Made by a program: the position numbers and the translations under genes. DNA of 32,000 bases from Promethearchaeota archaeon (lineage in GTDB: Archaea > Asgardarchaeota > Lokiarchaeia > Sigyniarchaeales > Promethearchaeaceae): NCBI GenBank assembly GCA_016933055.1, contig JAFGBS010000027.1, positions 60,001 to 92,000 on the forward strand. Direction: 5' to 3'. This document shows positions 13,059-28,333 of this stretch, in pieces (position 1 is the first letter of the stretch; each line of letters begins with the position of its first letter). The notes under the pieces were generated by a model. That model was given only the letters and a program-made list of their open reading frames with translations. It did not search any database and was not told the origin of the DNA.

Positions 13059-13213
13059 TCTAGTAATACAAATTCAAATAGCATTAAAACCAAAGGAAAT
13101 CGAAAAAATCAAACTCATAGGATCAGGAAGGAATTGCTAATGCTACCATTTATAACTTCTTCAAAGAATCTTTACATTGAATTGATACAAGAAAATTGGG
13201 TGGCAGAATAATT

Positions 13214-14683
13214 ATGGTTATAAAATCTGGTCTTGAATATCGACAAAGTCTCAAACAGAGAAAACGAATGAATATTTATTTCATGGGGGAGAAAATCAAC
13301 GACCCTCTATCTCATCCGATTATGAAAGCGGCAGTAAACTCAATAGCATTAACTTATGATTTAGCGTGTGATCCTGAATATAAACATGTGATGACAACTA
13401 AATCGGCAATAACTGGTGAAAAAATCAATAGATTTTGTCATATCCATCAAAGTACAGAGGATTTGATCAAAAAAGTAGAAATGCTAAGAATTTTAGGTCA
13501 AAAAACGGGCACTTGCTTCCAAAGATGTGTTGGCATGGATGCTATGAATGCAGTTTATATAACCACCTTTGAAATCGATGAAAAATATGGCACAGATTAT
13601 CATAAAAGATTCCAAAAATACGTCATACAAGCAGAAGAAAATGACTGGACCATCGATGGCTGTATGACAGATCCAAAAGGAGATAGAAGCAAGAGACCAT
13701 CAGAACAAAAAGATCTGGATCTCTACGTCCATGTAGTAAAACGAATTGATGATGGGGTAGTAATTCGGGGAGCTAAAGCTCATCAAACAGGAGCAATTAA
13801 TAGTCATGAGCATTTAATAATGCCAACCTTAACAATGAGGAAAGAAGACAAAGATTATACAATTTGTTGTGCGGTTCCTGCAGATGATCCAAAAATTATT
13901 TATATCTATGGAAGACAAGCGAGCGATCTACGACGATTAGATGACAGTGAATCTGGAGATATTGATTGTGGGAACCCCGAATTTGGAGGTCAAGAAGCAC
14001 TTGTGATATTTGATGATGTGTTTGTTCCCAGAGAACGTATTTTTATGAATGGAGAAACAGATTTCTGTGGACGGTTAGTGGAAACCTTCGCGGCATATCA
14101 CCGTCAATCGTATGGTGGATGTAAGGTTGGTGTTGGAGATATATTAATTGGTGCTGCAGCAACAATCTCAGAATACAACGGAACCAAAAATGCCTCTCAT
14201 ATCCGAGATAAAATTACCGAAATGGTGCATCTCAATGAAACACTATATTCTTGTGGGATTGCATGTTCATCATGTGGACAGAAAACCTCATCGGGGAACT
14301 ATCTAGTAGATATTCTGCTTGCAAATGTATGCAAGCAGAATGTTACTAGATTTCCATTTGATATAGCTCGGTTACTCCACGACATAGCGGGTGGTATTTT
14401 TGTTACGATGCCGAGTGCAAAAGATTTATCGAATCCCGAAACAGCGAAATGGGTAAAAAAATATCTCTCTGGAGTAGAAGGGATTGAAACTAAAGACCGA
14501 ATGAAAATGATGCGATTGATTGAAAACCTAGTTTTAGGTAGAGCTGCAGTGGGGTACTTAACAGAATCAATGCATGGCGCTGGATCCCCCCAAGCTCAAA
14601 AAATCATGATCCAACGACTGGTAGATATTGAGCTAAAAAAACGATATGCTAAAACCCTGGCTCATATAAAGGATGAATCTTAA
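13214..14683 (+). CDS. abfD: 4-hydroxybutyryl-CoA dehydratase / vinylacetyl-CoA isomerase (start revised to ATG 13214)
   Basis: CFQRCVGMD and HRQSYGGC provide the 3 Cys + 1 His [4Fe-4S] ligands; MTDPKGDRS, GAKAHQTG and HGAGSP motifs. Confidence 0.9.
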   Translation: MVIKSGLEYRQSLKQRKRMNIYFMGEKINDPLSHPIMKAAVNSIALTYDLACDPEYKHVMTTKSAITGEKINRFCHIHQSTEDLIKKVEMLRILGQKTGTCFQRCVGMDAMNAVYITTFEIDEKYGTDYHKRFQKYVIQAEENDWTIDGCMTDPKGDRSKRPSEQKDLDLYVHVVKRIDDGVVIRGAKAHQTGAINSHEHLIMPTLTMRKEDKDYTICCAVPADDPKIIYIYGRQASDLRRLDDSESGDIDCGNPEFGGQEALVIFDDVFVPRERIFMNGETDFCGRLVETFAAYHRQSYGGCKVGVGDILIGAAATISEYNGTKNASHIRDKITEMVHLNETLYSCGIACSSCGQKTSSGNYLVDILLANVCKQNVTRFPFDIARLLHDIAGGIFVTMPSAKDLSNPETAKWVKKYLSGVEGIETKDRMKMMRLIENLVLGRAAVGYLTESMHGAGSPQAQKIMIQRLVDIELKKRYAKTLAHIKDES

Positions 14684-15260: not shown

Positions 15261-16715
15261 ATGAAAAGTGAAAATAAAAGAAAGAAAGAAAAGACTTTAA
15301 CTACCCATGCAGGTCGACCGATTGCGGATAATCAGAATTCATTAACTGCTGGTCCACGAGGTCCACTATTAGCTCAAGACTTCCAACTTTTTGAAAAACT
15401 AGCTCATTTTAATAGAGAACGAATCCCAGAACGCATTGTGCATGCAAAAGGTGCTGGTGGATTTGGGACATTCACTGTTACTAATGATATCACGAAATAT
15501 ACTAAAGCTAAAGTCTTTTCAGAAATAGGTAAAAAAACTAGCATCGTTGCAAGATTTTCTACGGTAGCGGGAGAAAAAGGATCTGCCGATACAGTTAGAG
15601 ATGTTCGCGGATTTGCAGTGAAATTTTATACTGAAGACGGAAATTGGGATATGGTAGGAAATAATACACCTGTATTTTTTGTTCGAGATCCCTTTAAATT
15701 TATGGATTTCATCCATTCACAAAAACGGGAACCAGATACAAATTTACGGTCTGATACAATGCAATGGGACTTTTGGTCTCTTAGTCCTGAAACATTACAT
15801 CAAGTAACCATTCTCTTTTCCGATCGGGGTATTCCATATGGATTTACCCATATGAATGGATATAGCAGTCATACCTACAGTTTTATAAACGATAAGGATG
15901 AACGCTTTTGGGTGAAATTTCATTTCAAAACTATGCAGGGAATAAAAAATTTCAAGCAAGCGGAAGCAGATGAAATTGCTGGGACAAATCCTGACTGGGC
16001 AACTCAAGATTTATTTAATCGAATTGAAGAAGCAGAATTTCCAAAATGGAAAGTTCACGTGCAAATAATGCCGGAAATGGAGGCTGAAGAATATGAATGG
16101 AATCCTTTTGACTTAACCAAAGTTTGGCCCCATAAAGACTACCCATTAATCGAAGTAGGGATTATGGAATTGAATAAGAATCCATCCAATTATTTTGCAG
16201 ATATTGAGCAAGCAGCTTTTGCACCTGCGAACGTGGTTCCTGGAATAAGTTTCTCTCCAGATAAAATGCTTCAAGCTCGGATTTTTGCTTATACTGATGC
16301 CCATCGATATCGTTTAGGTGTAAATTATGAGATCTTACCCGTGAATCGACCAAAAGTAGAAGTACACAGTTATAATCGAGACGGTTTCATGCGACATGAT
16401 GGCAATTACGGAAATACAGTTAATTATGAACCAAACAGTTTCGGAGGACCAAAGGAAAATCCCGAATTTAAAGAACCTCCATTAAAGATTTCTGGTGATG
16501 CAGATAGATATGGACAACCAATTGTGGATGCAGACTTCATTCAACCGGGAAATTTATATCGGTTGATGCCTTCAGAGGAGCAAAAAAGATTAATAGAAAA
16601 CATTGTTAGGAGCTTAAAGAAAGCACCAATCGAAATTCAGAAGCGTATGATTACTCTTTTCAGCAAAGCAGACATAAATTACGGACAAGGTGTAGCTAAA
16701 GGATTAGGATTGTAA
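15261..16715 (+). CDS. katA: Monofunctional small-subunit heme catalase
   Basis: [15 protein letters not shown] (distal His), VGNNTPVFF and [14 protein letters not shown] (proximal Tyr). Confidence 0.95.
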
Positions 16716-19213: not shown

Positions 19214-19867
19214 ATGCGAAACAAAAACGTGAAATATTTGTGGTTGATGGCCTTTGGATTGATGTTGATTTTTAATCTTTCTACTCAAATGGGATCAACA
19301 CATAGTCCAAAATTCATTGACTTGAAATATTACTTTAATGATGGTGTATTAAGTGTGTATTATACTCACGGAGTTAGCAATACTAGTTACCATTACGTTG
19401 ATCTGGTTGAATTTAAATTTTTTAACTTAACGGATGAATGGATGAATACGGGAAATGATGGAGAACCATGGACAGAAGAGGATAAAATCGAACAACCTGA
19501 TGTAACGGATGAAGACATAATTCTTATAGCTAATTTCAATGTAACTTACGACAAACAAGAAGACGATAGTCTGGATACTCAAGATACGCAGATTTTTCAT
19601 CATAACTACACGATTGCAGATTATAATGCGAGTTTAGAAATCCAATACTGGACTTATATTCGTGTTACAGCTCATTGTAATCTTGGTGGAAGTTTCACTA
19701 ATGATATCATAGCAGGTCACCTTTGGTGGGATGAACCACATTCTTTCTTGGAGGCATTAGTGCCCACTGCAATTTGCACTCTAGTTGTTCTCGCCCCCAT
19801 CATTATTTGGGCAATTATTGGCAAACAAAAAGAAAAACGAAAGAACAATCAGGAGGTTCAAGAATGA
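19214..19867 (+). CDS. Extracytoplasmic, membrane-anchored metal-binding protein with superoxide-reductase/desulfoferrodoxin-like His3Cys motif
   Basis: Signal-like N-terminus; H30-S-P, T-H52..H60-YV and H154-C155-NLGG parallel the SOR motifs KHVP, HP..EH.I and CNLHG; five N-x-S/T sequons; C-terminal TM with basic tail. Confidence 0.55.
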   Translation: MRNKNVKYLWLMAFGLMLIFNLSTQMGSTHSPKFIDLKYYFNDGVLSVYYTHGVSNTSYHYVDLVEFKFFNLTDEWMNTGNDGEPWTEEDKIEQPDVTDEDIILIANFNVTYDKQEDDSLDTQDTQIFHHNYTIADYNASLEIQYWTYIRVTAHCNLGGSFTNDIIAGHLWWDEPHSFLEALVPTAICTLVVLAPIIIWAIIGKQKEKRKNNQEVQE

Positions 19868-21336
19868 CCGCAATAGAACGAGAAATTAAGAAAATTCAAG
19901 AACCTGCAATGATTACACAAACTTTTGACGAGAAAAAGAAACATAGGTATAACAAAATCCATGTTTCTATCATTGTGTTTATTGGCATTCAAGTTTTGTT
20001 TCTGATCACGTTTTCCGAGCCATTTTCTCTATTTTGGGGGAACCATCCACTATTTAACATTTATAATGATGATATAATTAATCGATCCGCTCGGATTGTT
20101 ATGATTTATCACTCCTTGGCTAATCCTTTCGTTGTGGCAAACACTTTCTGGATTATGGAGTATTTTGATGTCAGAGAAAGATTTATCCCATGGTTGAAAT
20201 GGAGTTTAATCCCCGGTGCATATCTTTCTGGGTTATGTGGATTAATTTTTGCCTATACGCGTTTGAGAATTTTCCATGAATTATTTTATATCGGATTGGG
20301 CTTGATTTTCTTAGGTGGATGCATTTTTATCGTTGCAGCATTTCCGATCGCTGGAAAATTCCCCGATCCTAAGAAAGTGCCAAAGGATTCACTTCTTCAT
20401 GGATGGAGTTTAGAAAATTACTCCCTTGTGATTCTAGCAATTTGTGTTTTAGTATCCACTGTTTATGCTGGATTAGCTGCAATTGAGAATTTTACAGGAA
20501 CTATTACCGGATTGATGCGCGAAACTGATGCCTTTTTAGCTGAAGAAGTTGTAAAGATCTTACATCACGATTGGGTGGAAAAATTCGTCGTTTCTCATCT
20601 TCACATCCAATTATCTCTGAGTTCTGCCATGGTTGTAATGATAGGTTATCGCACAGCCCGAGTTAAAGGGATAGCATATAAGATCATCCTTTGGGCAAAT
20701 CCAGTAGGGGTATTGGTAATTTCATACGGGGCTTGGGTACTCAATCATTACATGATCTGGGCTGGTGCAGGTATTTTAATTCTCAATACGACTTGGATGG
20801 CGATACAAGGTTGGATAAACATCGCTAAAGATCATTATCAGACAAAAGGAATAGATATTAAAAGTTTGCGAGTTAGGAAGCGAATTTTGGGAATATTCAA
20901 AGATTCTGTGAAGTTCGCATTGTATTTTATCTATTTATATGCTCAAATTGTTGTTACAATCTGTGGAATCATCGTGGGTTTACAGACAAGAGAAGTCTAC
21001 CGAACACACGAGTATGTACAAGTCGAATACGACTTTAACGTGGGTCACTGGCATTTATTAGCAGTTTTGATTGCAACTTTACTCTTATTAACCGCCATTG
21101 ATCACTTCAGACATACTAAAGGTGTATTAAGAGATTTAGCTGGGTGGTTCTTAGGGATTGGGGGGTTCATTGCCTTCTCAGGTGCCAATTGGTACATGAT
21201 GCGGGATCCCGCCGTAAATAAATTTCCTTCCATGTATACAACATTTGTAGGAGTTTGGATCTTAACTCTAGGTTTTCTATTCGGCATCCTGACAATTATC
21301 ATAAACTATCGGAAAAACAGGAGGAATGAGAAATAA
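19864..21336 (+). CDS. 12-TM heme-copper oxidase/NO-reductase subunit I-like protein with non-canonical active site (490 aa; start revised to ATG 19864)
   Basis: GGAGGT SD and ATGA overlap with the upstream stop; 12 hydrophobic helices; H83 (TM2), H245-L-H247-I-Q249 (TM6), Y288 and N294-H295 (end of TM7), G-H395-W-H397 (TM10); co-operonic with heme O synthase. Confidence 0.6.
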   Translation: MTAIEREIKKIQEPAMITQTFDEKKKHRYNKIHVSIIVFIGIQVLFLITFSEPFSLFWGNHPLFNIYNDDIINRSARIVMIYHSLANPFVVANTFWIMEYFDVRERFIPWLKWSLIPGAYLSGLCGLIFAYTRLRIFHELFYIGLGLIFLGGCIFIVAAFPIAGKFPDPKKVPKDSLLHGWSLENYSLVILAICVLVSTVYAGLAAIENFTGTITGLMRETDAFLAEEVVKILHHDWVEKFVVSHLHIQLSLSSAMVVMIGYRTARVKGIAYKIILWANPVGVLVISYGAWVLNHYMIWAGAGILILNTTWMAIQGWINIAKDHYQTKGIDIKSLRVRKRILGIFKDSVKFALYFIYLYAQIVVTICGIIVGLQTREVYRTHEYVQVEYDFNVGHWHLLAVLIATLLLLTAIDHFRHTKGVLRDLAGWFLGIGGFIAFSGANWYMMRDPAVNKFPSMYTTFVGVWILTLGFLFGILTIIINYRKNRRNEK

Positions 21337-22136
21337 TGGCAACCTGGGTTGAAATGGGTGATTTATCTAAGATGCATCTAATCCTAACATGTATATTTAT
21401 GATAGGGTTATTCATACTCATACTTTTAATCGATTATTTCAAGTTTCAGAAGAAGAAAGGGCTGATATGGACCTTTATTGGCATTCTGATTGTCATAGGC
21501 GGGACAGTTTTAGGATTAAGTCTTGTTGAACCCATAATTCTACTTATAGCTGCAGAGGCGACAACACGATTAGTAATAATTGTATTAGGAATCTGCACGG
21601 CTTTTATAATGATAATCTCGTTCCTTACTATCATCATCTTAGAAAATATCCAAGGTATCCCAACGAAAAAGACTGTATATTCTATTCTGTTCACAGCCAT
21701 TGCTTTGATGGGAGTAATATTTATAGTAACAGTTGTTCTGGTTACATGGTTTTTGCCTCCCACAAGTGAAAACCTCCATTTAGGTTCTATCATTGGATTA
21801 CCCGCATTATTCATGCTTTCGGTTGGAACAATTGTGGTAATTTTTGACGAACCGAAGTTAGTAATATATCATGGTCTAACTGCAGGTGGTTCATGGATAT
21901 TGACATTTATGAATGTAATATCTCTATTTTCATTGACTCTGGAACAAATGAATTCCTATTCAGGATGGATCCACGCTACTCATATTCTTTTTGGCGGTAT
22001 CGGTCTGATTAGCGGATTTCTAAGTGCTTTGTTTGGAATTTCGGGTCAGCGAAAGTATGCAAAATTAACCGGATACGTTACATTGGGTTGTTGGTGGACA
22101 GCGTATTTCATCAGCCAATTCATAGTGGGTATTTGA
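21336..22136 (+). CDS. 8-TM His-containing membrane protein; C-terminal four helices resemble DUF420 (CtaM)/cytochrome b561
   Basis: TAATG overlap with the upstream gene; H148, H179 and H213/H216 at the starts of successive helices; final helix RKYAKLT..VTLGCWW. Confidence 0.4.
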   Translation: MATWVEMGDLSKMHLILTCIFMIGLFILILLIDYFKFQKKKGLIWTFIGILIVIGGTVLGLSLVEPIILLIAAEATTRLVIIVLGICTAFIMIISFLTIIILENIQGIPTKKTVYSILFTAIALMGVIFIVTVVLVTWFLPPTSENLHLGSIIGLPALFMLSVGTIVVIFDEPKLVIYHGLTAGGSWILTFMNVISLFSLTLEQMNSYSGWIHATHILFGGIGLISGFLSALFGISGQRKYAKLTGYVTLGCWWTAYFISQFIVGI

Positions 22137-22145
22137 GGAGGATTG

Positions 22146-23606
22146 ATGCAAATGACGAAAGAATGTATAACAAAAAAAATAGAAAAGCTCACAGCTGAAT
22201 TAGGTGAAGTGGTATCTCCTTTACATGTGACTACTGATCCCTATGAAATTGAAGCGGCCACTGGGGATTTATCAATTCTACCTAAGTATCATTATAAATT
22301 TAAAGAAGAACATATTGCCACGCATGTTGTTCGACCGAAAGATACAGAAGAACTTGCTAAAGTTATGAAGATCTGTAAGAACTATGATCAAAATGTGACA
22401 GTAAGGGCAGCTGGAACTTCGTGTTATTCCTCCAGTACCCCAACAAAAGGTGGGGTAGTAATCGATGTCCGTCGTATGAATAAAATCCATGAAATTGATG
22501 AGGAGAAGAAGATCGTTAAATGCGGTGCAGGAATTTCTTGGATTCGGCTCATTAGCTCGCTTCGGGCTAAAGGTTTAGCTCCTAAATGCTATCCTACCAG
22601 CTATAAATCCTCGTGTTTATCTGGATTCGTTCTCACCAGCGGTAAAGCGGGAATTGGGACCGTAAAATACGGACCTATGTTCGATGCATTAATCGCAATC
22701 AAACTGGTTAAACCGGATGGTTCTATAGTTAGAATTACAAAAACCAGAGGTGGAGAAATCACTTTAAACGATGTAGTGGGATCTTTTGGAATATTAGGTG
22801 CAGTTGCAGAAGTAGAAATGAAAGTTACTACCCTAAAACCTTCAATGGAATTTGCTGGATATGGATTTAACACGATGCCAGAAGCAATGGAATTCTACAA
22901 TGCTGCTAAAAATAATCCCGTAGATAAGCCATTTTTCCTTTCACTTAGTGATCACAAATTCGAAGAACTGTCTCATGTAACAATTCCTGCTCGGGATTTC
23001 TTTGTCTATGTCGTGTTCTATGATGAGCTTGAAAAAACCGGAAAAGCCATCGCAAATTTGACAGAAAAAGCAAAGAACTCAAACGGATTAGCAATTGATC
23101 ACTGGTATTTGGAGGAAAAATGGCGGGATATTGCAGAAACAGAACTGAATCTCGGTCGTCTGTGTAATAATCCAATTTTCCAAGAATATTGGATTGCTGA
23201 TGAACGAATTCCCCAATTTTATGAAACATATGCACCCATAGTAAAGGATGATAAATATCGAAATGCTTTTTATATGATTGCAGGAGCGAATGGAAAAAGC
23301 CGAATCAAGTTATTTGGGTTGTCTGATATTGAGAATTCCTTGGAATTCTTCGGAATTAAAGCGAACTTCAATTTGATGGCTCAAAAATCCTATAAAATGG
23401 GTGATGGGATTTACACCGTGGGTGTTGTAAACACATTCTACCAACTTCTATTCAATATGGAGCGCGTAAAATACATGCGAAAATTGAAAAATTCGGTGGA
23501 TCCAGATGACCGCATTAACTCGTATCGTATCACAAAAACAAAAATGCGCTTGTGGCGTGTAAAACTACTTTTCTTTATAGGAAAATTGCTATATAGGTGG
23601 GCATAA
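22146..23606 (+). CDS. FAD-binding oxidoreductase (FAD_binding_4, GlcD/D-lactate dehydrogenase-like)
   Basis: VVRP...EEL..V, RAAGTS, GGVVIDVRRMNKI, GAGI, YPTS and KYG..D....KLV.PDG motifs; C-terminal DPDDRIN; GAGGAGG SD (start 22146 or 22152). Confidence 0.85.
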   Translation: MQMTKECITKKIEKLTAELGEVVSPLHVTTDPYEIEAATGDLSILPKYHYKFKEEHIATHVVRPKDTEELAKVMKICKNYDQNVTVRAAGTSCYSSSTPTKGGVVIDVRRMNKIHEIDEEKKIVKCGAGISWIRLISSLRAKGLAPKCYPTSYKSSCLSGFVLTSGKAGIGTVKYGPMFDALIAIKLVKPDGSIVRITKTRGGEITLNDVVGSFGILGAVAEVEMKVTTLKPSMEFAGYGFNTMPEAMEFYNAAKNNPVDKPFFLSLSDHKFEELSHVTIPARDFFVYVVFYDELEKTGKAIANLTEKAKNSNGLAIDHWYLEEKWRDIAETELNLGRLCNNPIFQEYWIADERIPQFYETYAPIVKDDKYRNAFYMIAGANGKSRIKLFGLSDIENSLEFFGIKANFNLMAQKSYKMGDGIYTVGVVNTFYQLLFNMERVKYMRKLKNSVDPDDRINSYRITKTKMRLWRVKLLFFIGKLLYRWA

Positions 23607-23622
23607 TGACGGGGATGATAAA

Positions 23623-24987
23623 ATGACAGAAAAAAAATCAAAAAACGTAATTACAACGGGTCCTCCCGCTGCAGGTATATATTCACCCAATCAACAAAAT
23701 TTGATAAGACCTATTACAACAGAAGATGTGACGCAAGATTATTTACGCTGTGTCAATTGCGGGTATTGTCGAGATGTTTGTAGGGTATATAATATTACAT
23801 TCTCAGAAAGGGATTATGCTGGTGGACGTAACAGAGTTCTCAAGTCCTTAGCAAAGAAAGAAGTTCTATTTAATCCGTTAACCATTCAAGACTTAGTCTT
23901 TAAATGCATGTTGTGTGGTGCATGTAGAGAAGTATGTCCGGTAGGTATAGATACTCTTCATGTATTTCGCTCATTCCGCGTGCGGGCAGTAAATGCAGGA
24001 GTAATCCCCGAGAAGCTAGCTAAAGTTCGGGACTCTATTATAGAATTTGCCAATCCCTTTATGGAGGAGGGTACGCATCGTCACGATTGGTGTCAAGGGA
24101 ATGCTTGTAATGAGGGATATGTAGCATGGGAGAAAGGAGTAGAATTATATCGCAAGATCGAATCAGGAGAACTCAAACCGAAAGATGTTGATCCAAATTT
24201 AGTTGCGTACTTTATTGGTTGTACAAGCGCTTACAGAAACAATGAACTCTCAAGTGCAACATGTCGTGTATTAGATGCAATGGGGGTGAACTTCATTGTA
24301 ATTCCTGAAGAGAAGTGTTGTGGCTCAGTTCTATTTAGAACAGGCGTGGATGATGTAGCGACCAAACTGATGAAGTACAACATTGATTTAATACGTAAGG
24401 TTGGAATTAAGGAAGTGATCTTTTCTTGCGCGGGATGTTTCTCGACATTTTCAAACGAGTATGTGGAATATACTAACAACAATTTGGGATTTAAGCTCTC
24501 TCATGTAACTCAATTCATACCTAGATTCGCAAAAGAACACAACTTTTACTTTAAGTATAATCTTCGCCCAAAAGAGGATCCTCTTATTATTACCTTCCAT
24601 GATCCATGCCATCTGGCGAGATATACCAATGTTTATGAAGAACCAAGAGAGTTAATTAGCATGATAGAAGGTATTCGGCTTGTAGAAATGCAATATATTA
24701 AAAAAATGAATCACTGTTGCGGAGCTGGTGGGGGAGTTCGAGCTCTATACGGTGACATAGCAACTAATATCGCAGATTCTCGATTAGATGAAACAGTAGA
24801 ATGTTGGGACCAAATCAATGAAGACAGATTACTCGAAGCCGTTGAAACAAAAGCAGAATCCTTAGTATCAGCTTGCGTTTTCTGCAAGAATAACCTAAGT
24901 AATGCTGCCTCGCAATTTAAACCAGATTTACCAGTTCATGATATTCTACAAATACTTGAGAACTGTAAAGTCGTACGTATAGCATAG
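23623..24987 (+). CDS. Fe-S protein with two [4Fe-4S] motifs and two CCG domains (GlcF/HdrD/GlpC-like)
   Basis: CVNCGYCRDVC, CMLCGACREVCP, CCGS/SCAGC and HDPCH/CCGAGGG/ACVFC motifs. Confidence 0.9.
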   Translation: MTEKKSKNVITTGPPAAGIYSPNQQNLIRPITTEDVTQDYLRCVNCGYCRDVCRVYNITFSERDYAGGRNRVLKSLAKKEVLFNPLTIQDLVFKCMLCGACREVCPVGIDTLHVFRSFRVRAVNAGVIPEKLAKVRDSIIEFANPFMEEGTHRHDWCQGNACNEGYVAWEKGVELYRKIESGELKPKDVDPNLVAYFIGCTSAYRNNELSSATCRVLDAMGVNFIVIPEEKCCGSVLFRTGVDDVATKLMKYNIDLIRKVGIKEVIFSCAGCFSTFSNEYVEYTNNNLGFKLSHVTQFIPRFAKEHNFYFKYNLRPKEDPLIITFHDPCHLARYTNVYEEPRELISMIEGIRLVEMQYIKKMNHCCGAGGGVRALYGDIATNIADSRLDETVECWDQINEDRLLEAVETKAESLVSACVFCKNNLSNAASQFKPDLPVHDILQILENCKVVRIA

Positions 24988-25002: not shown

Positions 25003-25884
25003 ATGAGTTTCAAAAAACTGCTAATTGACTACCACGAGTTGATCAAGTCAAAACAAACTCTCTTACTACTGGCAACATGCATCTTTGCATATTTAATGAC
25101 GGTTGTTCCAATGGAAGGGCGTTTTGATTGGTTGGAATTAATTCTATTGTCTTTTTCCACATTCATAGCGATCTCAGGAGCAACTATATTGAATATGTAT
25201 ATCGATCGGGATATTGATGCGAAAATGGAACGAACTAAAAACCGCCCATTACCAAGTGGAGAGATGAATCCCAATTTCGCTCTAATTAATGGTATCATTT
25301 TCACGGTGTTGGGATTAGCTTTAACGATATTTCTATGGAATTGGATAACATGCATGGTGATCTTCGTGGGATTTTTTGTTGATTTCGTCATATATAGTAT
25401 TTGGTTGAAACGAAAAACAAAATATAGTATTCTTTTTGGGGGGATTGCAGGAGGATTACCCGCCGTTGCAGGAAGAGTTCAAGCTATCGGTAATATCGAC
25501 TTGATTGCAATTCTTTTAATGTTTTTCATAGTAACTTGGATCCCTGTGCATATATTAACTCTTTCGTTAATACCGCAAAATCTGGAGGGATATAAAAATG
25601 CGGGTGTTCCTATGTGGCCAGTTGTAAGTTCTGAACAACAGACGATGAGGGTTATAGCTGGAAGTGCACTTGTAAATGCGGTTATTATGGGGGTAACTGC
25701 AATTTTGATGCAAATTCATTGGATTGTTGGAATAATTATTGGAGCTTGTTGTGCTATTATGATTATTCTAGTATTGATGAATTTAATCAAACCTACTCAA
25801 AAACTCACATTTACGATATTTAAATTTGCTTCAGCATTTATGTTATTAGGATTTGTATTGTTATATATTGGAGCGGTAGTATAA
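25003..25884 (+). CDS. ctaB: Protoheme IX farnesyltransferase (heme O synthase)
   Basis: NMYIDRDIDAKMERTKNRPLPSG, WLKRKT...I..GG.AG..P and W.P.H motifs are diagnostic of CyoE/CtaB within the UbiA family. Confidence 0.9.
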   Translation: MSFKKLLIDYHELIKSKQTLLLLATCIFAYLMTVVPMEGRFDWLELILLSFSTFIAISGATILNMYIDRDIDAKMERTKNRPLPSGEMNPNFALINGIIFTVLGLALTIFLWNWITCMVIFVGFFVDFVIYSIWLKRKTKYSILFGGIAGGLPAVAGRVQAIGNIDLIAILLMFFIVTWIPVHILTLSLIPQNLEGYKNAGVPMWPVVSSEQQTMRVIAGSALVNAVIMGVTAILMQIHWIVGIIIGACCAIMIILVLMNLIKPTQKLTFTIFKFASAFMLLGFVLLYIGAVV

Positions 25885-25918: not shown

Positions 25919-26659
25919 ATGGTAGAAAACTTGGAAGAAATCCACAAAACGACAACAATTATCAGTACACGGGTAAATTTCTCCGTACCAAAAAAAAGAT
26001 GGCTTGCGACCTATAGCATGAAATATCCTCAATTGCAATTCGAAATCCTTTCTTTATTATCTATCTCGAAAGATCAAGGGAATTGTTTACTCCATATCAA
26101 AGGATCGAAGGTAATTTCATTTTTCAAAGAATTCAGCAAAGAATATGATCCAAAAAAATATCAGTTAATTCTTGAGGAAAAAGGAGAGTTGTTAATGAAC
26201 ATTATTTTTGACTCTCCTTGGGTCATTTGGTCAATAGTAGAACCTCAAGTCATTATTTTATATCCAATTGAAATCCAGAATGGAAAAATCACTATTGAGT
26301 TGATTGCCCCAATTCGGAAAATTGAAGAAATATTTCGAAAACCGAAATGGTCAAAACTAAACTTAAAATTTACTGTAGCTAAGAAATACTGCGGAGCCCC
26401 TAGTTTGAATAAACATCAAAAAAATATTCTGGATAAGGCCGTGGAATATGGTTTGTTCGACATTCCTCGAGTTAACTCCCTAACAGATGCGGTTAAGATG
26501 TTGGAGAATGAAACGGGGAAAAAAATTTCAGTTTCTGCATTATCTGAAAATATCAGAAGAATTACCAAAAAATTAGCAGAATGCTATATTAATTGCCGCG
26601 ATACGAATGAAGTAGAATTAGATCTTTTATTAGAACTGAATAAAATCGAAAAAGGATGA
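25919..26659 (+). CDS. HTH_10 (bacterio-opsin activator-type) transcription regulator
   Basis: C-terminal L..HQ..IL..A...G.FD.PR...L....ISVSALSENIRR...KL. Confidence 0.8.
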   Translation: MVENLEEIHKTTTIISTRVNFSVPKKRWLATYSMKYPQLQFEILSLLSISKDQGNCLLHIKGSKVISFFKEFSKEYDPKKYQLILEEKGELLMNIIFDSPWVIWSIVEPQVIILYPIEIQNGKITIELIAPIRKIEEIFRKPKWSKLNLKFTVAKKYCGAPSLNKHQKNILDKAVEYGLFDIPRVNSLTDAVKMLENETGKKISVSALSENIRRITKKLAECYINCRDTNEVELDLLLELNKIEKG

Positions 26660-27483
26660 ATATTATGGTTTTAAACGTATTTCCAGAAAATTTGGCATGG
26701 CTTTGGGATATTATAGCTATGATTATTGCCACAGTCACGTTATTGTTGGTTGTAAAAATAAACGGTAAAATTGAAAAAAGTGGAAAACTTCCTTCATTTA
26801 TTACACGGAAGATCATACATATCGTCGTAGCACCAATCTTTCTGTTAACATGGTTCCTTTATACTTGCACAACAGTAAGCCGATATATTGCAATGATCGT
26901 CCCGTTTCTTTTTATTGTCCAGTTTATTGCAATCGGAACAGGTTTTTTGAAAGATGATGATTCGGTTAGGTCCATGTCGAGAACTGGAGACCCAAAAGAA
27001 TTGTTACAAGGGACTCTATACTACTCAATTATAATCCTACTTGTTACAGTAGTTTGGTTTTATGTTCCCGCATCCGCATTGAATTATGCTACATTAAAAG
27101 GAAATCCTACTGCATTCGTAATAATCGGCTGTTTGGCAGGAGGGGATGGTCTTGCTGACATCTTTGGTCGTATATATGGAAAAAAGAAATTTGGAATCGG
27201 TGGGGCTAAAAAATCGTTTGCTGGAGCAGTTGGCATGTTTTTTGGCTCTTTCATATTCAGCATCGGACTGATAGCTATATTCTCGATTGAAGTAGGGAAT
27301 TTTGAAGTAGTGACTTTGATGCTTCCAGTATTTATTATTTCAGTGGTAGCAACCATCGTAGAGTTTTTCTCCCCCCCAAAGATCGATAACATAACAATAC
27401 CTGTTGCTGTAATCATCGTCATTGTGTTATTGTTCTACTTAACCCCTTTATGGCCTTTTGATTTGATAACGATTATAGCCTAA
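26656..27483 (+). CDS. CTP-dependent prenyl-alcohol kinase (phytol/farnesol kinase, VTE5/FOLK-like)
   Basis: TRKIIH, SMSRTGDPKELLQGTLYY, GGDGLADIFGR.YG, KSFAG and DNITIP motifs; ATGA overlap with the regulator. Confidence 0.8.
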   Translation: MNIMVLNVFPENLAWLWDIIAMIIATVTLLLVVKINGKIEKSGKLPSFITRKIIHIVVAPIFLLTWFLYTCTTVSRYIAMIVPFLFIVQFIAIGTGFLKDDDSVRSMSRTGDPKELLQGTLYYSIIILLVTVVWFYVPASALNYATLKGNPTAFVIIGCLAGGDGLADIFGRIYGKKKFGIGGAKKSFAGAVGMFFGSFIFSIGLIAIFSIEVGNFEVVTLMLPVFIISVVATIVEFFSPPKIDNITIPVAVIIVIVLLFYLTPLWPFDLITIIA

Positions 27484-27511: not shown

Positions 27512-28333
27512 ATGAAACGAAAATTAACTATTATAAAACTTGGTGGATCCCTTCTTACCGATAAATCTGTACCATACACCGCAAAAACCGACACTATCTC
27601 CTCTGTTGGTAAAGAATTGAAGGAGTGTTTAGAGTCAGGACTAATCGAAGATTTGATTATAATCCATGGAGTCGGTTCCTTTGGACATATCCCAGTTCTT
27701 AAACATAAATTACATCTTGGATTACAAAATGAAGAACAGTTAATTGCGATGTCCCGAACTCAACACGAAATTAATCAATTTCGTTTGAAATTGACTGAAA
27801 TTTTTATAGAAAATGGGCTACCAGTTAATTTGTTGCATGCTTCCTCATTTTGTGTTAGTAAGAAAATGAAGATCTCTGAAAATTTCACAAATTCGGTTAA
27901 AGGATATATGTCTATTGGGATGATCCCTCTAATTGGAGGAGATATGTTATATGATTCAAAGATGGGATTCAGTGTAGGAAGTGGAGATCAATTTATGGTA
28001 TTATTTGCAAAGAAATTTTCTGCAGATAATTTGATTTTTGTTTCCGATGTCGATGGAGTATTTACATCAGATCCTAAAAACAATCCCAATGCTCAAATTC
28101 TTTCCTCTATTAAAATTAAAGATTTAGGAGAACTAATTAAAAAAACCGTTAGTTCCCCGTTAAATGACGTTAGCGGAGCAATGAAAGGGAAATTAAGAGC
28201 AATATACTCTCTTAAAAGCGAGATCAATAATGGCAAAAATGTGTGTCTATTATCAATGAATACCTATGGAAAATTAAAATCACTACTGTCTGCTGTACAA
28301 CCTTCACCATCTCATACCAGATTTGTTAAATGA
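27512..28333 (+). CDS. ipk: Isopentenyl phosphate kinase family protein (amino-acid kinase fold)
   Basis: IIKLGGSLLTDK, HGVGSFGH (IPK catalytic His), SGD, SDVDGVF..DP and DVSGAMKGK. Confidence 0.85.
   Translation: MKRKLTIIKLGGSLLTDKSVPYTAKTDTISSVGKELKECLESGLIEDLIIIHGVGSFGHIPVLKHKLHLGLQNEEQLIAMSRTQHEINQFRLKLTEIFIENGLPVNLLHASSFCVSKKMKISENFTNSVKGYMSIGMIPLIGGDMLYDSKMGFSVGSGDQFMVLFAKKFSADNLIFVSDVDGVFTSDPKNNPNAQILSSIKIKDLGELIKKTVSSPLNDVSGAMKGKLRAIYSLKSEINNGKNVCLLSMNTYGKLKSLLSAVQPSPSHTRFVK

Follow-up and report, generated by a model that had tools for sequence, protein, structure and literature searches.

A protein family with the predicted fold of haem-copper oxidase subunit I, encoded beside haem O synthase in Asgard archaea and bacteria

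Introduction

The latest survey of new families of haem-copper oxidases (HCOs) describes lineages related to B-type oxidases and to the nitric oxide reductases (NORs) cNOR and qNOR (PMC11214002). Families with an altered active site include gNOR, eNOR, sNOR and nNOR, all of them without the active-site tyrosine (Tyr), with gNOR also replacing one active-site histidine (His); they are related to B-type oxidases and keep homologues of the CuA-type subunit II (PMC11214002). Within the Asgard archaea, terminal oxidases of the A-type have been reported only from some Heimdallarchaeia, while the Loki- and Thor-types are described as being without O2 reduction of the respiratory type (10.1101/2025.02.26.640444; 10.1101/2024.07.04.601786). 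The A-type oxidases of Heimdallarchaeia and Hodarchaeales have been discussed as aerotolerance devices (10.1101/2025.02.26.640444; 10.1101/2024.07.04.601786). Here we describe a gene from a stretch of 32,000 nucleotides (the window) of a Promethearchaeota archaeon, contig JAFGBS010000027.1, whose product, P0001, is predicted to share the fold of HCO subunit I. No paper describing the P0001 family was found in our literature searches.

Several known systems lend themselves to comparison. CcoN of the cbb3 (C-family) oxidase of Pseudomonas stutzeri (3MK7, chain A), for example, has the same minimal core of 12 transmembrane (TM) helices, a similar length and the G-H-x-H motif in TM10, and the Asgard members of the family share its Tyr seven residues before the His of TM7/8. 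P0001 is nonetheless only about 11% identical to CcoN, and its family has no match to the Pfam COX1 or ccoN models, lacks one His of the HH pair, carries an H-x-H in TM6 and an extra His at TM3/4, is without the cytochrome c partners CcoO and CcoP, and is linked to haem O, whereas cbb3 oxidase uses haem b. NorB (4XYD, 3O0R type) resembles the family in its 12-TM core, in having no family-wide cross-linked Tyr and in its stress-related or anaerobic context. The FeB site of NOR, however, is formed by three His and a glutamate (Glu) four residues after the TM6 His (H+4), where the family has two aligned His and a glutamine (Gln) or methionine (Met); NorC is absent, and we know of no link between NOR and haem O. 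With gNOR, eNOR, sNOR and nNOR the family has in common an altered active site without Tyr, but it is missed by Pfam COX1 and has other partners. The A-type oxidases of Heimdallarchaeia and Hodarchaeales belong to the same phylum and likewise co-occur with haem O synthase, yet these are canonical COX1 proteins present in 24 of 400 Asgard genomes, unlike the family, which occurs in 59, 44 of them without canonical COX1 (haem O synthase occurs in 72). Finally, E. coli bo3 oxidase also has the genes for an HCO-fold protein, CyoB, and a haem O synthase, CyoE, in one operon; CyoB, at 12% identity to P0001, differs in having six canonical His and Tyr288, a quinol donor and subunits II-IV.

On balance, P0001 is probably the catalytic-type subunit of an unannotated, deeply divergent HCO branch that binds haem O and reduces O2 and/or NO, and archaea regarded as free of terminal oxidases probably carry an unrecognised one. 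If true, this adds an HCO branch missed by curated models, with a ligand set unlike that of any described oxidase or NO reductase, and revises the list of genes on which the debates about aerotolerance and eukaryogenesis draw, in a way that is testable in the existing Prometheoarchaeum culture. New elements of this account are the phylum-wide co-occurrence counts, a universal residue set, a test of the signature residues, an internal repeat and a dehydrogenase module restricted to the Loki order.

The gene, its predicted fold and topology

19864-21336, + strand: P0001, predicted 12-TM protein of the HCO fold, 490 amino acids (aa), stop-free translation

The open reading frame of P0001 is real, the strand opposite being closed by many stops. 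The gene upstream (19214-19867) ends in a stop that overlaps the ATG of P0001, the following gene begins at 21336, and all three belong to a co-directional run reaching 28333 in which P0001 is second. A non-coding or wrong-frame artefact was ruled out by the open frame, the 116 homologues and the confident fold. Searches of Pfam and NCBIfam returned noise and no significant match to P0001, and neither the single sequence nor the family profiles matched any PDB sequence or any HCO chain.

Structure comparison was more informative than sequence searching. An AlphaFold2 model built on an alignment of 54 sequences reached a predicted local distance difference test score (pLDDT) of 88.4 and a predicted template modelling score of 0.88. 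When it was scanned with VIA-align against 48,161 PDB representatives, the ten top chains were all HCO subunit I (Z 15.6-23.2, 384-419 residues aligned), with Z 23.2 for cbb3 CcoN (3MK7_A, 392 residues aligned, root mean square deviation 3.5), Z 22.2 for cNOR NorB (4XYD_A), Z 19-22 for the A-type, ba3, caa3 and bo3 oxidases and Z 15.6-16.4 for qNOR. The best non-HCO chain scored Z 11 and covers one four-helix arc only; single arcs of the fold also resemble haem-dependent styrene oxide isomerase and MAPEG proteins (Z 8.9-10.2). Foldseek searches of the PDB gave a probability of 1.0 and template modelling scores of 0.45-0.57 to bo3, aa3, ba3 and cbb3 oxidases and NOR, headed by 6WTI_A (0.57), and the best cluster in the AlphaFold DB, at 0.73, has an annotation that includes "cytochrome oxidase subunit I profile domain". 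As modelled, P0001 has the HCO/NOR subunit I fold with its three four-helix arcs. An earlier note on this DNA, made from the letters alone, had proposed this fold and a structure search as its check, and the proposal survives that search.

The model contains 12 long helices (residues 30-48, 74-100, 105-132, 135-159, 183-211, 237-265, 270-291, 295-327, 348-373, 382-415, 421-445 and 455-489). H83 lies in helix 2, H138 at the start of helix 4 (the TM3/4 junction), H245 and H247 in helix 6, H295 at the helix 7/8 junction, and H395 and H397 in helix 10. The helix count and the placement of His in helices 2, 6 and 10 had been read correctly from the sequence, as had the strings SHLHIQ, NHYMIWAG, SYGAW and VGHWH, all found in the translation, and the spacings of 50 residues from H245 to H295 and of six from Y288 to N294. 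Taking the sequence together with the helix limits of the model, loops rich in lysine and arginine alternate as expected for a 12-TM protein with its N-terminus inside. With this topology, the seven His would all lie in the outermost, P-side third of the membrane, where HCOs have theirs.

Remote homology and ligand mapping

Canonical HCO profiles were built from E. coli CyoB, Asgard A-type COX1, and one CcoN-like and three qNOR-like genes from bacterial carriers of the family. In global mode, hhalign aligned the family with the A-type profile at Prob 93.5 (E 3.6e-8, 446 columns) and with the mixed A/C/qNOR-like profile at Prob 91.4 (E 1.1e-7), and TM9-12 alone matched canonical HCOs at Prob 91.6. 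Local mode was weaker than global (Prob 33-60, with 59.9 for the A-type profile). Only the multi-family and A-type profiles aligned, comparison with the one CcoN-like sequence or with the three qNOR-like sequences alone giving Prob < 1.

Curated models do not reach the family. P0001 and 30 relatives have no match to Pfam COX1 (PF00115) at E <= 10, and none of these 31 members matches NnrS (PF05940) or DUF2871 at E <= 10. Membership of NnrS or DUF2871 was ruled out by this absence of a profile match. A canonical but fast-evolving COX1 was ruled out as well, the ligand differences being conserved across two domains of life.

Alignment with the canonical profiles allows the His residues to be mapped. 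In TM10, the two His that serve CyoB as ligands of its high-spin and low-spin haems (H419 and H421) correspond to H395 and H397, which also align with H340 and H342 of the CcoN-like protein. The first His of the CuB pair corresponds to H295 and the second to Tyr296, and the CuB His of TM6 corresponds to H247 when the A-type profile is used and to H245 with the mixed one. In TM2, H83 is six residues deep in the hydrophobic span, as is the canonical His. This depth, together with the transitivity of the internal repeat described below (H83 equivalent to H397, and the canonical TM2 His to the second TM10 His), favours H83 as the equivalent of the TM2 His, although both profile alignments put Ala76 at that position. 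Judged by these alignments, four of the six canonical His positions are supported, H83 is probable and one is absent. The earlier note had counted five of the six by eye: H395, H397, H295 and one TM6 His hold, and H83 is probable, though aligned seven residues off. Its choice of H245 as the CuB/FeB His is one of two options, and its register in TM7, with N294 and H295 on the HH pair, may also hold, although the alignment makes H295 the first member and Tyr296 the second.

Internal symmetry

The arcs of P0001 resemble one another. In the family alignment, TM5-8 (residues 180-335) matched TM9-12 (residues 340-490) with hhalign Prob 97.1 (E 7e-11), and TM1-4 matched TM9-12 with Prob 86.7, whereas arcs 2 and 3 of canonical HCO profiles treated alike gave Prob 0.1-2%. 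The equivalent positions are H83, H247 and H397; I81, H245 and H395; and H138 and H295. The alignments are small and the repeat is a lead, but it suggests a layout of sites that is more symmetric than in known HCOs, and a detectable repeat bears on the origin of the 12-helix scaffold. The H-x-H motifs in both TM6 and TM10 and the His at both the TM3/4 and TM7/8 junctions have led us to consider a near-symmetric, ancestral-like HCO scaffold, in which H138 and H245 would form a third haem or metal site in the pore that aromatic side chains occupy in canonical oxidases, and which would work with the synthase and the Loki-order dehydrogenase as a self-contained, quinone-independent system that reduces O2 or NO in supposedly oxidase-free Asgard lineages. 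We hold this extended version to be doubtful.

Conserved residues

Conservation was assessed in an alignment of 203 sequences (110 Asgard, 80 bacterial and 13 distant). R77, Y82, H83, H245 and the H395-W396-H397 motif are invariant, the H-x-H of TM10 being present in 202 of the 203, with a gap as the exception. H138, E227, H247, H295, R380 and E388 show no substitution in the Asgard and bacterial sequences, one of which has a gap, and a few among the 13 distant ones. Across the 54 Asgard homologues used for the model, H83, H245, H247, H295, H395 and H397 are invariant, and the conserved set spans Asgard archaea and bacteria at 24-30% identity. Read from these alignments, the signature of the whole family is seven His, two Arg and two Glu, on the predicted outer side of the membrane.

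The His residues named from the single sequence (H83, H245, H247, H295, H395 and H397) are thus essentially invariant, but that set had missed a seventh universal His, H138, as well as R77, R380, E227 and E388. The further residues to which a signature had been ascribed, Q249, N294 and Y288, turned out to be Asgard-specific and are replaced in bacteria:

Q249: Asgard (110), Gln 110; bacteria (80), Met 80
N294: Asgard (110), Asn 101, Asp 8; bacteria (80), Ala 80
Y288: Asgard (110), Tyr 96, Trp 10; bacteria (80), aliphatic 80 (Leu/Ala/Ile)

Being lineage-specific, these three cannot define the chemistry of the family. Around H295, the Asgard sequences have N294 and Y296 and the bacterial ones Ala and a variable residue, with Tyr or Phe at the second position of the pair.

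Linkage to haem O synthase

25003-25884, + strand: haem O synthase-like UbiA prenyltransferase, 293 aa, TIGR01473 cyoE_ctaB

The synthase gene of the window matches TIGR01473 at 204.8 bits (E 2e-60), with other prenyltransferase models at <= 53 bits; its product is 31% identical to E. coli CyoE and is the sole strong match in the genome. An orthologue beside the family member in locus L001 scores 214.3 bits, over the cut-off of the model, and 39 of the 72 Asgard genomes with a synthase match have one over that cut-off.

In Asgard archaea, every one of the 12 short loci and 18 of the 20 longer ones have the synthase adjoining the HCO-like gene. The arrangement is the same in 75 of the 80 bacterial loci, and the other five break off at a contig edge shortly after the HCO-like gene. 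At the level of genomes, 58 of the 59 Asgard carriers of the family also have the synthase, and in five COX1-free Asgard lineages the carriers of the family and those of the synthase are identical sets of genomes. When a broader profile was used, three of four tested Asgard genomes that had seemed to contain the synthase only were found to hold a more divergent family member. In the window genome (91% complete) no COX1 (six-frame search, E <= 1), haem A synthase or cytochrome bd was found, and hence no other known user of haem O. To our knowledge, prenylated haems are known essentially only as HCO cofactors. This, combined with the linkage to the synthase, is the strongest argument that P0001 would bind haem O. 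If true, the association would account for anaerobes, Anaerolineae for example, that carry an orphan gene for haem O synthase.

A few Asgard genomes (G289, G288 and G397) have the synthase and neither COX1 nor a detectable family member, the broad profile having been applied to G289 and G397.

So close a linkage can also be read differently, with P0001 as a non-enzyme handler of prenylated haem, such as a chaperone, store, exporter or sensor, that acts with the synthase. The synthase is the sole universally conserved partner, a universal electron-entry subunit is not recognisable, and the window genome is without genes for tetrapyrrole synthesis, so that haem traffic may matter. Haem O would, however, then have no known end user in these genomes, and the H-x-H of TM10 and the P-side Arg and Glu, retained in an HCO fold, look like fixed cofactor sites. 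Known haem-handling proteins (CcsBA, CcmC/F and CtaA) have other folds, and the Loki-order operon contains a complete dehydrogenase module, and a chaperone needs no electrons. We consider a haem handler quite improbable.

Neighbouring genes

19214-19867, + strand: P0117, 217 aa; N-terminal anchor or signal, Ig-like beta-sandwich ectodomain, C-terminal TM
21336-22136, + strand: P0118, membrane protein, 266 aa; C-terminal four-helix module (about 140-266)
22143-23606, + strand: FAD_binding_4 (GlcD-like) dehydrogenase subunit, 487 aa; PF01565 E 3.9e-33
23623-24987, + strand: protein with two [4Fe-4S] and CCG (GlcF/HdrD/TfrB-like), 454 aa; PF02754 E 1e-29, Fer4_8
25919-26659, + strand: HTH_10 regulator, co-directional
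26656-27483, + strand: unknown 275-aa protein, co-directional
27512-28333, + strand: isopentenyl phosphate kinase (IPK), NF040647 173.6 bits, cut-off 120

P0117 is encoded where oxidase operons have subunit II, yet its sequence shows neither a CuA nor a CxxCH motif. H30, H52, H60, H129, H176 and C188 are invariant in 12 sequences and C155 nearly so, with H30 directly after the predicted signal or anchor segment (A-H-S-P). Its AlphaFold2 model (pLDDT 77) has generic Ig and FN3 folds as best matches (Z <= 8.7); it is also weakly like superoxide reductase (Z 7.1-7.2) and like a model of a desulfoferrodoxin domain in the AlphaFold DB (E 1e-4). P0117 may be a metal-binding ectodomain.

P0118 has invariant H148, H179, H213, H216, E172 and R239 among 18 homologues. 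It lies beside the HCO-like gene in Loki-order loci, and elsewhere in Asgard archaea its C-terminal module is joined to different N-terminal parts. Weak matches to DUF420 (CtaM-like) were obtained for 2 of 18 members (E 0.038). P0118 is a candidate haem-b-type electron relay or assembly factor. A complex prediction for P0001, the C-terminal module of P0118 and two haems gave no verdict (score 0.00) and counts neither for nor against binding.

The two genes that follow complete a dehydrogenase module. The FAD protein scores 114 bits against TIGR00387 (glcD), far under the cut-off, and the Fe-S/CCG protein 190.8 bits against TfrB, also under the cut-off. The Loki-order cluster includes P0117, P0118 and the FAD_binding_4 and Fe-S/CCG genes, the dehydrogenase module being confined to this order, and more distant Asgard lineages retain only the pair of HCO-like gene and synthase. 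Further downstream, the genes for the HTH_10 regulator, the 275-aa protein and IPK accompany the cluster in Loki-order genomes. In 8 of the 10 Loki-order loci (L133-L138, L140 and L142) the 275-aa protein and IPK are no more than a few kb away from it, and they may supply prenyl phosphate for haem farnesylation.

Bacterial loci have a different composition, with a Crp/Fnr regulator (upstream in most), the HCO-like gene, an FGE-sulfatase-like protein and the synthase. In some Bacillota/Symbiobacterium (L076 and L100), and in the 785-aa P0141, the FGE domain is fused to the C-terminus of the HCO-like protein.

Genes related to oxygen or NO lie in the wider surroundings. A flavodiiron protein or a YgbA_NO-family gene is near the cluster in relatives, the YgbA_NO-family gene standing beside the 275-aa protein and IPK in 6 of 10 Loki-order loci. 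Two genes precede the cluster in the window:

13196-14683: HpaB, 4-hydroxyphenylacetate 3-hydroxylase-like flavin monooxygenase, upstream of the cluster
15261-16715: haem catalase, 3 kb upstream of the cluster

The HpaB-like enzyme and the catalase are of types that use or detoxify oxygen species, in a presumed anaerobe.

The YgbA_NO gene near 6 of the 10 Loki-order clusters brings in a narrower version of the O2/NO reading favoured here, in which the family is specifically an NO reductase of a new NOR type and not an oxygen scavenger. NorB is among the best structural matches (Z 22.2), and the family has no conserved Tyr; HCO families without Tyr have been argued not to be O2 reductases, and gNOR replaces an active-site His (PMC11214002). 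The family, however, lacks a Glu cluster of the NOR type, with Gln (Asgard) or Met (bacteria) at H+4, and the loci examined contained neither a nitrite reductase nor any further gene of denitrification. Catalase and flavodiiron protein indicate O2 as much as NO, and a Tyr stands at the cbb3-type position, seven before H295, in 96 of 110 Asgard sequences. An exclusive NO reductase strikes us as somewhat unlikely.

Proposed function

From the computed fold, topology, conserved residues, remote homology and gene linkages we infer haem and metal binding, an electron path and a substrate. At least two haems would be bound near the outer face through H395 and H397 of TM10 and H83 of TM2, at least one of them being haem O from the co-encoded synthase, with R77 and R380 as propionate partners. 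H295 and either H247 or H245, perhaps helped by E227 or E388, would hold a non-haem metal or form an altered distal site. In the Loki order, electrons would come from the cytoplasmic FAD and Fe-S/CCG dehydrogenase, acting on a substrate of the 2-hydroxyacid type, and would reach the haems by way of the four-His protein P0118, so that a small oxidant, O2 and/or NO, is reduced at the active site. Such a reaction would protect an otherwise oxygen-sensitive anaerobe. A role in scavenging under stress fits because of the catalase nearby, the YgbA_NO and flavodiiron genes in relatives and the Crp/Fnr regulators.

A number of results weigh against this assignment. In TM2, both profiles align the canonical His with Ala76, and H83 comes seven positions further along the same face of the helix. 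Counterparts exist for just two of the three CuB/FeB His, namely H295 and either H247 or H245. Across the 203 sequences there is no candidate for a conserved cross-linked Tyr, the H+4 residue being Gln249 or Ser251 and the C-type Y288 not being kept in bacteria. A Glu of the NOR type at H+4 is likewise absent, the motif being H-L-H-I-Q in Asgard archaea and H-L-H-I-M in bacteria, with E227 and E388 located elsewhere. No cupredoxin or cytochrome c partner was recognised, searches of the neighbours with Pfam and NCBIfam being without such a match, and no SCO1 copper chaperone was found in the window genome. The score of the window synthase (204.8 bits) is just under the TIGR01473 equivalog cut-off of 210.3. 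Finally, six-frame searches of the 91%-complete window genome found neither HemB (ALAD) nor HemC, for which reason haem would need to be imported. Genes for a haem catalase and for the haem O synthase are nonetheless present, and the organism may rely on haem from outside.

With neither a conserved Tyr nor a NOR Glu, and with only two CuB His, analogy is not enough to assume either O2 or NO chemistry. The lack of a conserved Tyr and of a third His argues against the canonical four-electron O2 mechanism, and the lack of the NOR Glu against the canonical NOR mechanism. These same absences leave room for P0001 as a haem O-binding redox protein of the HCO fold whose substrate is peroxide, a sulfur or selenium compound or an organic molecule, or which serves as a transmembrane electron conduit without an active site for small molecules. 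The two additional His kept throughout the family, H138 and one of H245/H247, hint at another arrangement of cofactors, the partners vary between FGE-sulfatase-like proteins in bacteria and the FAD/Fe-S dehydrogenase in the Loki order, and the likeness of single arcs to styrene oxide isomerase and MAPEG proteins points the same way. Yet all characterised members of the fold reduce O2 or NO (PMC11214002), the neighbouring genes point to oxidative or nitrosative stress, and Crp/Fnr regulators are typical of operons responsive to O2 or NO. We regard another substrate, or none, as unlikely, and retain the reduction of O2 and/or NO as the probable function.

Relatives and distribution

A word-indexed search returned 116 homologues of P0001 at 37-81% identity, every one labelled hypothetical, and those with a named organism are all from Asgard archaea (Promethearchaeota/Loki, Thor, Heimdall and Hod). 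The cultured Prometheoarchaeum syntrophicum (P0017) has a family member, DSAG12_01126, and a paralogue of it. Further relatives, at 24-38% identity, came from an exhaustive HMMER search of 1.8 billion representatives, and the bacterial member P0202 among them, used as a query, led to 174 species-level genomes. Most of these are from Anaerolineae or further Chloroflexota, and a small number are from Bacillota (Symbiobacterium) and Calditrichia. Shape searches of the ESM Atlas gave further clusters from Thermoplasmatota and from Methanobacteriota, 13% of the members of the latter cluster having Pfam COX1.

Canonical COX1, with E about 1e-130 to PF00115, is limited to four genome families among the 400 Asgard genomes. 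In a tree of the P0001 family, the close Asgard group and the Anaerolineae group form separate, well-supported clusters; the tree is unrooted, and the direction of transfer cannot be read from it.

Paralogues occur in the Asgard genome G142, a single contig of 4.3 Mb with two HCO-like genes, 56% and 39% identical to P0001:

Loci L139 and L140 of G142: C1 633000-652500 and 2716500-2736000

One paralogue is accompanied by the dehydrogenase module and a flavodiiron protein, the other by the synthase, the HTH_10 regulator and the two downstream genes.

In a Chloroflexota genome, the region G404:C2:2691529-2697745 contains a COX1-positive open reading frame of 651 aa and two weak, stop-interrupted COX1-like fragments. 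These COX1-type genes sit 4-10 kb upstream of a family member (L115), forming a cluster of several HCO-type genes.

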